This document shows positions 4,605-6,081 of a DNA stretch of 32,000 nucleotides, one piece after another. The translations under genes were made by a program, and so were the position numbers. This stretch comes from Nonlabens ponticola. Its GTDB lineage: Bacteria; Bacteroidota; Bacteroidia; Flavobacteriales; Flavobacteriaceae. The notes under the pieces are model-generated. The model was not told the DNA's origin, made no database searches, and was given only the letters and a program-made list of their open reading frames with translations. The DNA is taken from the NCBI RefSeq assembly GCF_003966335.1, contig NZ_CP034549.1, positions 930,001-962,000 of the forward strand, read 5' to 3'. Every line of letters starts with the position of its first letter. The stretch's first letter is position 1.

Positions 4605-4613
4605 GTTATCTGT
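4597..4613. terminator. short hairpin embedding both convergent stop codons (candidate bidirectional terminator)
   Basis: acagata (4597-4603) pairs with tatctgt (4607-4613) around a 3-nt loop. There is an A-run 5' and an AT/T-rich stretch 3'. The TAG of 4179-4604 and the TAA of 4606-6081 both lie inside it. The stem is AT-rich and weak. Confidence 0.3.
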
Positions 4614-6081
4614 ATAATTTGAGGTCTACCGTGTTGTAGATAACCTGCAAAAGGTCATCGTCTGTGTAAGGTTTGCCTAGAACCGCATGATAGCCGTTGC
4701 GCAAATACTTTTTGTTTTCTTTACCGTCGTTGTTCAAAGAAAGTGCTAGATACTTAAGAGTACGATTACTCATGTTACGTACACTTTTCATCATTTTTAA
4801 GAGCTCTATGGCGTCTGTTTGATTGATGCTATTGGCAACTATGATGAGATCTAGATCATCGTCTGTCTCTACCATATCTATTATTTTTCTGGCATCTGTA
4901 AGCACGTAGGTGTCAAAATTTTTGGTAGTAGTCAGGATTTTTACAGCTGTCATTTGTGCTGCTGCCTGATCTTCAACAATAAGCGTCTTGATTTTGCGCT
5001 TAAGGTTAACTGCTGCAATTTCATTCAAAACAGTGGTCTTGACTGAACCTGATTTCGAAACAGGTGCCTTGAAATTCAGTGCGTAAGAAATGGTGCCAGC
5101 GTCAGAGACATCGATACTTAAAGAGGCATTCATCAAGTCCAGCAATTCTCTACAAATGTTAAGCCCTAGGTTTTTAGATGCTTTAAGTCGAATTTCTTCT
5201 TTGGACTTTGTAATTATTGTTGAATTGTCAGCTGCAAATATTTGATCTATGGTGATTGATATACTTGAAATATTGGCTCTGCGCTGCAGTTCACTCACCT
5301 TAACTTCAATAGTATGATCATGAGATTGATAGATGACAAATCTCAATAAATGATTGATTGACTGCAGTAATTTATCAGGGTCGCCTGAGATGTAAGACGG
5401 GACATTTTTATCGATTGACACGTTTAATCGCGATCCCAGTAATCTCAATTGATTTTCAAAACCATCCAAAGCTGTGTCTAAAAGTTCCTTTAAAGAAAAT
5501 GCTGCCTGATTAAATTTGATAGACAAACCGCTGCTGTGAGAGGCTTGCTGCATGCCTTCTACCAGGCTTAATATTCCAGACACTTGTGACCTAATAGAAG
5601 TCATTAATTGTTCTTGCTCAAGGCTTAATGGAGACTTTGCCATCATGCTAGAAAAAGCATGAATTAAAGTTAATGGATTGCGTATCTCACTAGAGAAATT
5701 CTCTAGAAATTGGTCTTTAAAAGTATCGCGCTCTTTAAGTAAATCATTCTTGAGCTGTAAGATCTCATTGAATATGAGTGACTCATTCTTGCGCTGGGCA
5801 ATACTTTGAATCCGGTCATAAATAGTGGTAACATCAGCTAGCTTTAAATTTAATCGTTGGGACGTGTAAAGATGAGCCGTGATATCATAAACCTTATCAT
5901 CTATGTGAACCCCATTGAAGGTAGTAGCCTCTTGTAAGTTGTTTGAGTCGATAAATAGAGATTCAAAAAACGGATGAACGTTTGTAATGGCCTCACCAAC
6001 TTGCAGTTCAAAATAATCTTGATTGGATGCTAGAATGATTCCTTTCTCATCACATATGATATTTGCGTATAGATCACTCAT
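4606..6081 (-). CDS. degenerate hybrid histidine kinase / receiver protein (predicted phosphorelay-inactive)
   Basis: 491 aa with these regions in order:
- a PAS-like N-terminus
- a coiled coil
- a DHp H-box-like FLENFSSEIRNPL, where the expected SHEIRTPL histidine is Ser
- an HATPase-like region with N-box LLQSINHLLRFVIYQS (Asn replaced), no DxGxG box, and G2 reduced to SKNLGLNICRELLDLMNASLSIDVSDAGTISYALNF
- a C-terminal receiver-like domain (TLIVEDQ...DLIIVANSI...ALSL...LGKPY) whose phospho-acceptor Asp position is Ala. Confidence 0.7.
   Translation of the reverse strand: MSDLYANIICDEKGIILASNQDYFELQVGEAITNVHPFFESLFIDSNNLQEATTFNGVHIDDKVYDITAHLYTSQRLNLKLADVTTIYDRIQSIAQRKNESLIFNEILQLKNDLLKERDTFKDQFLENFSSEIRNPLTLIHAFSSMMAKSPLSLEQEQLMTSIRSQVSGILSLVEGMQQASHSSGLSIKFNQAAFSLKELLDTALDGFENQLRLLGSRLNVSIDKNVPSYISGDPDKLLQSINHLLRFVIYQSHDHTIEVKVSELQRRANISSISITIDQIFAADNSTIITKSKEEIRLKASKNLGLNICRELLDLMNASLSIDVSDAGTISYALNFKAPVSKSGSVKTTVLNEIAAVNLKRKIKTLIVEDQAAAQMTAVKILTTTKNFDTYVLTDARKIIDMVETDDDLDLIIVANSINQTDAIELLKMMKSVRNMSNRTLKYLALSLNNDGKENKKYLRNGYHAVLGKPYTDDDLLQVIYNTVDLKLYR

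Follow-up and report, generated by a model that had tools for sequence, protein, structure and literature searches.

The question raised by the gene at 4606..6081 is why a protein built like a hybrid histidine kinase should be kept when its phosphotransfer residues have all been replaced. Its ORF is uninterrupted, and within the window (the whole 32,000-nucleotide stretch of DNA that was analysed) the gene and the domains of its soluble product are arranged as follows.

4606..6081, minus strand: pseudo-hybrid-histidine-kinase gene, an ORF of 491 aa; fourth gene, at the signalling-output position of the Rup cassette
5830..6081, minus strand: N-terminal family-specific domain, residues 1–84, with a nearly invariant HPFF motif at residues 36–39
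5722..5829, minus strand: signalling helix, residues 85–120, with a conserved Y88-x3-Q92-x2-A-Q96-x-x-N-E-S motif
5512..5721, minus strand: DHp (HisKA) two-helix domain; H-box FSSEIRNPL at 5671..5697, Ser131 codon at 5689..5691
5059..5505, minus strand: degenerate CA domain; N-box at 5323..5352, G1 region at 5227..5256, G2 at 5152..5178
4609..4995, minus strand: pseudo-receiver, residues 363–491, with a clade-specific C-terminal tail; Ala416 codon at 4834..4836

Domain structure of the kinase-like protein

Comparison with Pfam models, a check suggested along with the original prediction, places HisKA (34.1 bits, residues 122–179) and Response_reg (34.7 bits, residues 367–481) above their cut-offs and HATPase_c, at 15.3 bits, below its cut-off of 26.4. 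The HATPase_c score falls stepwise through the family, from 91–98 bits in active orthologues to 52 in Nonlabens, 17 in P0003 and 15 in the window protein. The other hybrid kinase in the window, which had been cited as an intact counterpart at 28986-31280, is indeed intact (57, 92 and 85 bits with the HisKA, Response_reg and HATPase_c models, respectively), but its end needs correction; the ORF, which has a TTG start, extends to 31325.

The AF2 model of the window protein (pLDDT 79.7) is matched by Foldseek to GacS (7z8n; E 3e-18, TM 0.75 on the target) and then to ShkA, RetS and DivL. DHp and CA folds are both present in the model, the CA fold being kept with a lid region at pLDDT 57–64, and the pseudo-receiver has a (beta-alpha)5 fold at pLDDT 80–90; as modelled, the kinase and receiver folds are preserved. 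Residues 1–84 form a beta-rich bb-a-bbb arrangement, a pattern from which we infer a PAS-like domain, and their His36, Phe38, Phe39 and Asp66 show no variation in A1/A2 and at least 75–95% conservation in 103 sequences. In the helix that follows, Gln92 and Gln96 are each at least 95% conserved among the 103 kinase-type sequences, Gln92 being invariant in A1/A2, and the "invariant glutamine" described for Rup-linked outputs probably lies in this helix. A single-sequence search with residues 1–105 against 1.84 billion representatives returned 24 proteins of the flavobacterial type and reached none of the Rup outputs of GGDEF/EAL type that occur in other phyla.

Catalytic positions

The window protein was aligned residue by residue with the GacS and RetS structures as reference and was read against its active orthologues in a family alignment of 103 sequences. 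Ser131 falls on the phospho-His in the structural alignment ("sSEIRNPL" versus "sHEIRTPL"), and in the family alignment the H-box is FSSEIRNPL where active orthologues have FSHELRNPL. The N-box reads HLLRFVIYQS rather than NLLDNAxKYT, with Phe248 in place of the Asn; the G1 region reads ITIDQIFAAD rather than xxxxDTGxGIP, with neither glycine left, and Asp279 is possibly what remains of the G1 Asp, shifted by one residue; G2 is SKNLGLNIC rather than GxGLGLxIV; and the receiver phospho-Asp site is LIIVANSI rather than LILMDxxL, Ala416 replacing the Asp. Glu370-Asp371, Ser448 and Lys470-Pro471 of the receiver are retained. The replacements of the His, of the N-box Asn and of the receiver Asp (VAN for MD), the absence of G1, the reduction of G2 and the survival of the receiver's acidic pocket, Ser/Thr and Lys had all been read from the single sequence and stand as first described; the statement that every ATP-lid motif is substituted is accurate for the motifs, with an LGL remnant persisting in G2. 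The DHp domain also retains an E-x-x-N phosphatase motif (Glu132-x-x-Asn135), which would suit a residual enzymatic role and counts against the explanation that we prefer below.

A conserved His or Asp at a shifted position had been named as the observation that would overturn this description. Three candidates were examined and rejected: at the position of His141, P0002 has Lys and P0003 has Ser, and Asp411 and Asp424 are the ordinary receiver "yDlIL" and "mDG" positions. The family alignment contains no other conserved His or Asp near the catalytic sites.

The Rup cassette

Three further genes stand upstream of the kinase-like gene on the same strand, in the order DUFY, DUFX, GTPase, kinase-like gene.

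7430..7783, minus strand: DUFY coiled-coil protein, 117 aa, first gene of the cassette; weak coiled-coil-type Pfam hits only
6584..7417, minus strand: DUFX protein, 277 aa; N-terminal helical region and C-terminal alpha-bb-alpha-bbb-alpha domain
6108..6587, minus strand: Group 1 Rup small GTPase, 159 aa; Pfam Ras 115.5 bits

DUFY and DUFX are 12 nt apart, DUFX and the GTPase gene overlap by 4 nt, and 26 nt lie between the GTPase gene and the kinase-like gene, in line with the description of the latter as operonic. Group 1 Rup systems were described computationally by Wuichet & Sogaard-Andersen 2014 (PMC4316618) as a set comprising a coiled-coil protein, DUFX, a Ras-like GTPase without the Gln and a signalling output; the output is a histidine kinase or a GGDEF/EAL enzyme, either type having an invariant Gln in its N-terminal region, and dead-kinase variants are not reported there. 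According to the same paper the Rup GTPases are the nearest bacterial relatives of the eukaryotic Ras/Rab/Rho proteins, and no Rup system had been studied experimentally (PMC4316618). Its table lists the order DUFY>DUFX>Rup for Flavobacteriaceae and includes Cellulophaga and Lacinutrix, both of which are among the loci found here, and our DUFY protein matches its "DUFY" (PMC4316618). The window's GTPase has P-loop GLFGVGKTS, G3 WDTEGT, NKTD and SAK motifs and no Gln at the position of Ras Q61; after DxEG the family has Thr, Tyr, Asn, Ala or Ser, and Gln in none of 82 orthologues. With a small GTPase that carries G1–G5, a G3 without Gln and a DUFY/DUFX/output neighbourhood, the four-gene set is a flavobacterial Group 1 Rup GTPase cassette.

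The DUFX protein has no Pfam match and more than 1289 homologues, many of them named "OmpA" after fused forms. Foldseek matches of its AF2 model (pLDDT 58.7) are exclusively longin/Roadblock proteins, MglB among them, and a longin/Roadblock-like fold is predicted for its C-terminal domain; the DUFX profile found nothing among PDB sequences, and the signal comes from fold comparison only.

All 80 related loci have a Ras-like GTPase gene immediately 5' to the kinase-like gene, and DUFX and DUFY are present in all 78 that are untruncated, so that these have all four genes. Flanking ORFs of the 80 loci were clustered in search of an Hpt or response-regulator gene that is present in active loci and missing from dead ones. 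Only the four cassette genes proved universally conserved, and no conserved response regulator, Hpt or second kinase neighbour was found. In one relative, P0177, the protein ends in a weakly Hpt-like tail that scores 17.4 bits, under the cut-off. The cassette is embedded in conserved synteny with housekeeping genes, and none of its four proteins has a PADLOC anti-phage defence match better than E 0.001 (15.6 bits). A promoter/terminator scan was uninformative: its counts were similar to those in shuffled sequence, and the sigma-70 consensus is not applicable to Bacteroidota.

Orthologues and the order of loss

All of the catalytic residues (His, N, G1, G2 and Asp) are kept in 73 loci outside Nonlabens. 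Nonlabens and the window protein's lineage form a monophyletic "dead" clade nested within the active orthologues, and G1/G2 and the receiver Asp are absent across it. The question of whether relatives share the substitutions thus has a divided answer: they are shared in graded form within one clade, and most orthologues retain His and Asp. Within the clade the His was lost at least four times, piecemeal, the position being occupied by S, Y, Y, H, E, Q, Y or T according to the relative (Tyr in P0002, P0003 and P0025); frequencies of His loss are biased, because the pattern used in the genome scan admitted only H, Y or S there. L085, in the window protein's subclade, still has the His and has already lost the N-box, and the residue after the His position is Gln in P0003 (YQLRNPL), P0030 and P0031. 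The fully dead proteins are the window protein, P0002 and P0003 only; the latter two are 40–43% identical to the window protein and keep full-length ORFs, and the kinase-like gene is intact in every relative, including every Nonlabens sequence.

These comparisons show a series of losses whose direction can be read from the tree. A complete His-Asp apparatus is the state in most Flavobacteriaceae orthologues; the G1/G2 boxes and receiver Asp were lost in the ancestor shared by Nonlabens and the window protein's lineage, after which the N-box Asn and the phospho-His were free to vary and disappeared separately by sublineage. The window protein is an end state, with no catalytic residue left.

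Selection on the cassette

In the dead clade, selection was read from a pair of Nonlabens ulvanivorans strains, the only pair close enough for unsaturated dN/dS, in which G1/G2 and the Asp are already lost. Its kinase-like genes give a dN/dS of 0.026 (DHp 0.003, CA 0.049, REC 0.019) and its partner genes 0.011 (DUFY), 0.005 (DUFX) and 0.018 (GTPase); kinases of 12 active-clade pairs give 0.048–0.115. The dN/dS estimate that had been called for is therefore available from this pair but not from the window protein's own lineage, where it is not measurable because dS against the closest relatives, L081 and L083, is saturated and the values are unusable; ORF integrity, the conserved motifs and the sister clade point to purifying selection there as well.

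Constraint has shifted among the domains. The CA domain of the dead clade evolves at about twice the rate relative to its neighbours (ratio 2.4–2.7, versus 1.3 in active orthologues), and only 14% of its columns are at least 85% conserved, versus 31% in active orthologues. DHp and REC are not accelerated within Nonlabens (0.97 and 1.03, versus 1.19 and 1.38 in active orthologues) and are somewhat faster in the window–L081 pair (1.58 and 1.78), so constraint is possibly weaker in the fully dead subclade. Of the REC columns, 40% are at least 85% conserved in the dead clade versus 26% in the active one, a difference that is partly a sampling effect because the dead clade is narrower. Length and domain order are maintained and new clade-specific conserved motifs have appeared. 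Strong purifying selection has acted on the kinase-like protein and its three partners, in agreement with the original prediction of a conserved pseudo-enzyme rather than a decaying gene.

The preferred explanation and its alternatives

These observations show that the window gene is a maintained, by its residues catalytically dead, orthologue of a soluble hybrid kinase and the output gene of a Rup cassette. We infer that its product most likely works as a partner of the Rup GTPase and needs no phosphotransfer to do so, and we consider this account, taken whole, about 70% probable. The protein would act as a dimeric protein-protein signalling partner of Rup, its dimeric state maintained by DHp. 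Coupling to Rup would be through the conserved N-terminal domain and the Gln-bearing helix, with the protein serving either as an effector or as the proposed GAP that gives the Gln absent from the Rup G3. The output or docking surface would be the pseudo-receiver, which is unusually conserved and has a loop and a C-terminal tail specific to the clade. An effector of a GTPase had been suggested from the sequence alone; adjacency to the GTPase gene in all 80 loci and the Rup match support the link to a GTPase, for which the protein may be an effector, a regulator or a scaffold.

Three changes coincide with the loss of phosphotransfer: the fixed substitutions L59T, T139V and T143E in switch II and G5 of the GTPase, a charge reversal (K234E, K236E, Q238E) in the last helix of the DUFX Roadblock-like domain, and the gain by the pseudo-receiver of a basic tail, for which the acidic DUFX helix is a possible docking site. 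It is a tentative idea, and one we think somewhat doubtful, that GTPase control or read-out through the N-terminal Gln module, not phosphorelay, is the essential job of the kinase-like subunit, and that the window's clade has turned the whole cassette into a protein-protein switch that the GTPase alone drives.

The protein might instead be a phosphatase only, or might use its DHp to modulate another two-component system under GTPase control, by dephosphorylating a foreign response regulator, binding one (as with DivL and DivK~P) or forming a heterodimer with a real kinase (as with RetS and GacS). Such a role would account for the high conservation of the H-box beyond the His position (ELRNPLT), for the retained Glu132-x-x-Asn135 and for a DHp dN/dS that is the lowest among the domains; HisKA phosphatase activity does not require the conserved His (PMC12632262), and GacS and RetS are the best PDB matches in both sequence and fold, with DivL found too. 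However, the phosphatase motif is not invariant, because P0003, P0030 and P0031 have Gln at +1, the neighbourhood supplies no conserved response regulator, Hpt or second kinase gene, and the protein's own receiver is unable to serve as substrate. We consider this role unlikely, and it is compatible with the preferred explanation rather than exclusive of it.

Far less probable is that the window protein is still a kinase that uses a non-canonical nucleotide site or phospho-acceptor such as Ser131. The CA fold is kept, Asp279 is a possible remnant of the G1 Asp, and Ser or Tyr at the His position is phosphorylatable in principle; but the N-box has no Asn, G1 has lost both of its glycines and G2 two, HATPase_c scores 15 bits, there is no conserved acceptor because the residue at the His position differs between relatives, conserved His or Asp residues are absent nearby, and PsmA, with similar lesions, has no autokinase activity (PMC12963549). 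It is more improbable still that the gene has recently lost its function and is on its way to becoming a pseudogene, even though all catalytic residues are gone, the CA rate is about twice that of active orthologues and the Pfam scores of the window protein are the lowest in the family. The window protein, P0002 and P0003 have long been separated, since they are only 40–43% identical, yet these and all Nonlabens sequences have full-length ORFs; the sister clade has a dN/dS of 0.026, motifs of the N-terminal domain, DHp and REC are conserved, and all three partner genes are intact.

Comparison with known systems

The cassette resembles the Group 1 Rup systems in its genes and their order, in a G3 without Gln and probably in the conserved N-terminal Gln of the output; it differs from them in that the window's kinase is predicted to be catalytically dead in all three modules.

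In DivL of Caulobacter the acceptor site is reportedly a Tyr rather than a His, as it is in P0002, P0003 and P0025. DivL (PMC4211667) and RetS of Pseudomonas (PDB 6dk7, 7n0e) have kinase folds that signal by binding and not by autophosphorylation, but both act on other two-component proteins; a small-GTPase link is absent from both, as is a fused dead receiver of the kind seen in the window protein. PsmA of Streptomyces is a hybrid-kinase-like pseudokinase in which the residue at the His position varies and the ATP lid is degenerate, and it functions independently of phosphorelay (PMC12963549). It shares with the window protein the hybrid layout, the variable His site followed by a conserved downstream H-box and the degenerate lid motifs; in contrast, it exceeds 1200 aa, has PAS domains and a disordered region, lacks E-x-x-N, keeps a receiver Asp (which is dispensable) and binds DivIVA without a GTPase cassette, and the two proteins have no common descent beyond their shared domains.

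The actinobacterial conservons/AGPS (CvnA-D; PMC13343842) are also four-gene operons that encode kinase-like, Roadblock-type, Ras-like GTPase and unknown-function proteins. The CvnD GTPase, however, is of the MglA family, whereas the window's is of the Rup type with Asp in G3; CvnA is an autophosphorylating membrane kinase (PMC13343842), whereas the window's kinase-like protein is soluble; and CvnC (DUF742) has no counterpart, there being no DUF742 match in the window's cassette. The resemblance is functional and not one of membership, with only the Roadblock/longin-like fold of DUFX in common. Bacterial pseudo-receivers (Bourret et al. 2025, PMC12632262) likewise have a receiver fold that lacks the phospho-Asp and keeps the Lys; the window's differs in being fused to a pseudo-kinase and in having a true-receiver ancestor that can be read from living orthologues.

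Significance

Pseudo-kinases such as DivL and PsmA, and Rup systems, were already known; a dead kinase in a Rup cassette is new. It adds a clear example of pseudo-enzyme evolution in a two-component protein whose direction and sequence of steps are legible in living orthologues. The dead clade is a natural loss series that runs from full kinase to proteins without the ATP-binding boxes and Asp, then without the Asn and then without the His, and its members are ready-made constructs for locating the phosphotransfer-independent function. Every stage sits in the same operon under strong purifying selection, which speaks for a role of the kinase-like subunit that is independent of phosphotransfer.

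The cassette and its neighbourhood

The window protein is the orthologue of a hybrid histidine kinase that was ancestrally active; it is itself dead and is maintained by selection, and its gene lies in a conserved GTPase operon. Three genes precede it on the same strand, with successive spacings of 12 nt, a 4-nt overlap and 26 nt:

7430..7783, minus strand: coiled-coil protein (DUFY), 117 aa
6584..7417, minus strand: protein without a Pfam match (DUFX), 277 aa
6108..6587, minus strand: Ras-family GTPase, 159 aa (Pfam Ras, 115.5 bits)
4606..6081, minus strand: kinase-like ORF, intact, 491 residues

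A scan of species-representative genomes gave 80 such loci, each belonging either to the Flavobacteriaceae or to unclassified Bacteroidota; the genera include Nonlabens, Kordia, Maribacter, Sinomicrobium, Cellulophaga, Muriicola, Eudoraea and Lacinutrix. The GTPase gene is directly before the kinase-like gene in all 80, and the DUFX and DUFY genes are also present in all 78 whose sequence is not truncated at a contig end. Beyond these four genes the 80 loci share no universally conserved neighbour, and neither an Hpt nor a response-regulator gene is a conserved neighbour among them. We note that a TerB-like gene (141 aa, 4179..4604, plus strand) converges on the kinase-like gene in the window, the two gene ends being 1 nt apart, and is the downstream neighbour in 30 of the 80 loci (the Nonlabens, Kordia and Sinomicrobium group); a fructose-1,6-bisphosphatase gene is upstream in 29. 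In the window the latter (7821..8831, minus strand) lies in the same orientation as the first cassette gene and ends 37 nt upstream of it, with no terminator-like site between the two, and it may be co-transcribed with the cassette.

The cassette agrees with the description of the "Group 1 Rup" systems on every point testable here. Wuichet and Sogaard-Andersen (PMC4316618) defined these GTPases as Ras-like proteins without the catalytic Gln of G3, encoded alongside the coiled-coil DUFY and the unknown-domain protein DUFX; outside Bacteroidetes DUFX commonly carries a fused membrane helix and OmpA domain. The signalling output comes from the fourth gene, whose product is a histidine kinase or a GGDEF/EAL enzyme; an invariant Gln in the N-terminal region of this protein was proposed as possibly given to the GTPase in trans. 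Their table lists DUFY>DUFX>Rup in Cellulophaga, Lacinutrix, Croceibacter, Krokinobacter and Flavobacterium branchiophilum (PMC4316618). The G3 of the window GTPase is WDTEGT, and Gln is absent from that position in all 82 orthologues. DUFX homologues are frequently named "OmpA" in databases. In the kinase-like protein the candidates for the invariant Gln are Gln92 and Gln96, which are at least 95% conserved in a family alignment of 103 sequences and are within a Y-x3-Q-x2-AQ-x-x-NES motif where the long helix into the DHp domain begins.

Domains and catalytic motifs of the kinase-like protein

The Pfam scores of the window protein are slightly over the cut-offs for HisKA (34.1 bits, residues 122-179) and Response_reg (34.7 bits, residues 367-481), and below it for HATPase_c (15.3 bits against 26.4); those of a control hybrid kinase in the same window (28986..31325) are 57, 92 and 85 bits, respectively. 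Residues 113-486 align with the kinase-receiver cores of TorS, BarA and ArcB, far under the NCBIfam cut-offs. In the 103-sequence alignment the motifs of the active orthologues, those with a complete His-Asp catalytic set, compare with those of the window protein as follows, all motif coordinates having been verified by translation.

Catalytic motifs in the window protein and in active orthologues
H-box: window FSSEIRNPL; active FSHELRNPL
N-box: window HLLRFVIYQS; active NLLDNAxKYT
G1: window ITIDQIFAAD; active ..DTGxGIP
G2: window SKNLGLNIC; active GxGLGLxIV
Receiver beta-3: window LIIVANSI; active LILMDxxL

Ser131 falls on the phospho-His in alignment with the GacS and RetS structures, and no conserved His or Asp at a shifted position was found in the family alignment. 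The original prediction that the catalytic positions of this ORF are substituted is thus borne out by the Pfam scores and both alignments, as is its statement that the receiver keeps its acidic pocket, Ser/Thr and Lys (Glu370-Asp371, Ser448 and Lys470-Pro471 are all still present).

The AlphaFold2 model of the protein (mean pLDDT 79.7, pTM 0.45) can be trusted for the domain folds and cannot be for their mutual arrangement. Its predicted parts are:

residues 1-84: beta-rich N-terminal domain
residues 85-148: long helix
residues 154-185: second DHp helix
residues 193-341: CA-type alpha/beta domain
residues 364-491: (beta-alpha)5 receiver

The former lid region of the CA domain is modelled with low confidence (pLDDT 57-64). 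Foldseek matches of the model include GacS (E 3e-18), ShkA, RetS, DivL and many further kinases.

Graded loss of the catalytic residues

Orthologues at all 73 loci outside Nonlabens have the complete catalytic set, though the peptide pattern of the scan admitted only H, Y or S at the His position, so such proportions are no unbiased census. On the question whether orthologues share the His and Asp substitutions the picture is mixed: both residues are retained at these 73 loci, and the losses seen in the window protein belong to a single clade, inside which they are graded. In a neighbour-joining tree the window's group and Nonlabens form this single clade (the dead clade), which is nested among active orthologues. 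The Nonlabens proteins have lost G1 (e.g. INNNGIIP), have a degraded G2 (TTGLSFSI) and have Ser or Ala for the receiver Asp, and they keep the His and usually the N-box Asn; in the window protein and its relatives P0002 and P0003 every catalytic position is lost. HATPase_c scores drop stepwise from 91-98 bits in active members to 52 in Nonlabens, 17 in P0003 and 15 in the window protein. Within the dead clade the His position is Ser in the window protein, Tyr in P0002, P0003 and P0025, Glu in P0017 and Gln in P0021 (Nonlabens dokdonensis), and the partial gene at locus L085, nearest to P0003, has the His with the N-box already gone, which indicates that the His was lost at least four times, and last. 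The tree also indicates at least three separate losses of the N-box Asn.

Degeneration in this kinase family has also occurred independently of the dead clade. The receiver Asp alone is replaced in P0030 and P0031 (Ala or Ser, kinase intact) and in P0169 (Asn), P0163 combines Thr for the His, Asn for the Asp and Arg for the Lys, and P0179 has a dead CA domain and no receiver. P0167 and P0180 are kinases without a receiver, and the active member P0177 carries at its C-terminus a weak Hpt-like extension that scores under the Pfam cut-off.

Maintenance of the degenerate gene

Between two Nonlabens ulvanivorans strains (loci L037 and L080) dN/dS is 0.011 for DUFY, 0.005 for DUFX, 0.018 for the GTPase and 0.026 for the kinase-like gene (dS 0.76), compared with 0.048-0.115 for the kinase in twelve active-clade pairs of similar divergence. 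By domain the value is 0.026 for the N-terminal part, 0.003 for DHp, 0.049 for CA and 0.019 for the receiver. This is purifying selection in the sister clade only; in the window's own lineage dS is saturated against the nearest relatives (40-43% identical), and we infer maintenance there from the sister clade and from an ORF that is intact and conserved in length and motifs. Domain rates normalised to the divergence of the neighbouring DUFX and GTPase are 2.4-2.7 for CA in dead clades against 1.3 in the active clade, and within Nonlabens 0.97 for DHp and 1.03 for the receiver against 1.19 and 1.38. Columns at least 85% conserved fall from 31% (active) to 14% (dead clade) in CA and rise from 26% to 40% in the receiver, the rise being accompanied by the clade-specific motifs SISQxDAIEL (replacing D-x-x-LPxMDG) and KKPYTDDE and an extra C-terminal LKKFK tail. 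The DHp and receiver ratios of the window-L081 pair (1.58 and 1.78) are somewhat above those of the active clade, so constraint is possibly weaker in the fully dead subclade. The original reading of a conserved pseudo-enzyme is supported by the intact ORF and the low sister-clade dN/dS, and is refined by the graded series.

If phosphorelay were the sole output, its loss would be expected to free the whole cassette from selection, and the dN/dS values show otherwise. The kinase-like protein is probably a dimeric, phosphotransfer-independent partner of the Rup GTPase, in which the N-terminal domain and the Gln-bearing helix would couple to the GTPase, either as effector or as the proposed GAP, while dimerisation would depend on DHp and output on the surface of the pseudo-receiver. 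The N-terminal domain with its helix is the family-specific part (a search with it against 1.84 billion representative proteins gave only 24) and is about equally conserved in both clades (19% of columns in the dead clade and 20% in the active), so it is likely the GTPase-coupling module. The main rival is that DHp, as in DivL or RetS, may still act on another two-component system as a phosphatase or by binding a partner; its preserved E-x-x-N motif and its very low dN/dS are consistent with this, but the +1 residue of P0003 is Gln and the cassette has no linked partner gene.

Several changes in the partner proteins are seen at the window and loci L001-L005, L037, L080 and L081. The dead-clade GTPase has fixed L59T in switch II (DLEG to DTEG) and T139V and T143E in G5, the last helix of DUFX has a charge reversal (K234E, K236E, Q238E), and the pseudo-receiver has gained its basic C-terminal tail (LKKFK; DLKLYR in the window). 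These are coincidences of one phylogenetic event, not statistics, and are suggestive only.

A possible longin/Roadblock-like domain in DUFX

The DUFX model is weaker (pLDDT 58.7). Its C-terminal domain (residues ~138-250) is predicted as alpha-bb-alpha-bbb-alpha, and the PDB matches listed by Foldseek (E about 1e-4, target TM 0.5-0.6) are mainly longin or Roadblock domains, among them AP sigma subunits, p14/MP1, Mon1-Ccz1, TRAPP subunits, Rag C-terminal domains and MglB. The DUFX sequence profile gave no match against the PDB, nor did Pfam, and the longin/Roadblock likeness is suggestive, not proven. In the 2014 survey no MglB homologue was coupled to a Rup GTPase (PMC4316618); if DUFX were a hidden Roadblock-like regulator, the picture of Rup systems would change.

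Other genes in the window

The intact hybrid kinase at 28986..31325 (minus strand), which the original prediction used for comparison and placed at 28986-31280, is 779 aa long from a TTG start at 31325, and TPR repeats precede its strong HisKA, HATPase_c and receiver domains. A 451 aa protein (23950..25305, minus strand) with an HTTM domain (239 bits) and a vitamin K-dependent gamma-carboxylase lumenal domain (164 bits) belongs to a family unusual for a flavobacterium. Neighbouring genes at 1618..2184 and 2248..2943 (both minus strand) encode acidic proteins of 188 and 231 aa with signal-peptide or lipoprotein-like N-termini and no Pfam match.

Comparison with known systems

Pseudo-histidine kinases and pseudo-receivers are already known, the His being absent in about 0.9% of HisKA domains and the Asp in about 2.0% of receiver domains (PMC12632262). 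PsmA of Streptomyces is likewise a hybrid-kinase-like pseudokinase with a variable His position beside conserved H-box residues and a degenerate lid, and it has no autokinase activity and a phosphorelay-independent function; however, it keeps its Asp, is far larger, has DivIVA as partner and is not in a GTPase cassette. The actinobacterial conservons are similar in kind, each combining a GTPase and a Roadblock protein with a kinase-like and an unknown protein, but their GTPase is of the MglA family and their kinase is active and located in the membrane; the cassette is not a conservon member. PADLOC gave no defence-system match for it. No Rup system had been studied experimentally as of the 2014 survey (PMC4316618), and the dead clade provides a natural, graded and selectively maintained loss-of-phosphotransfer series within this uncharacterised bacterial Ras-like GTPase system.
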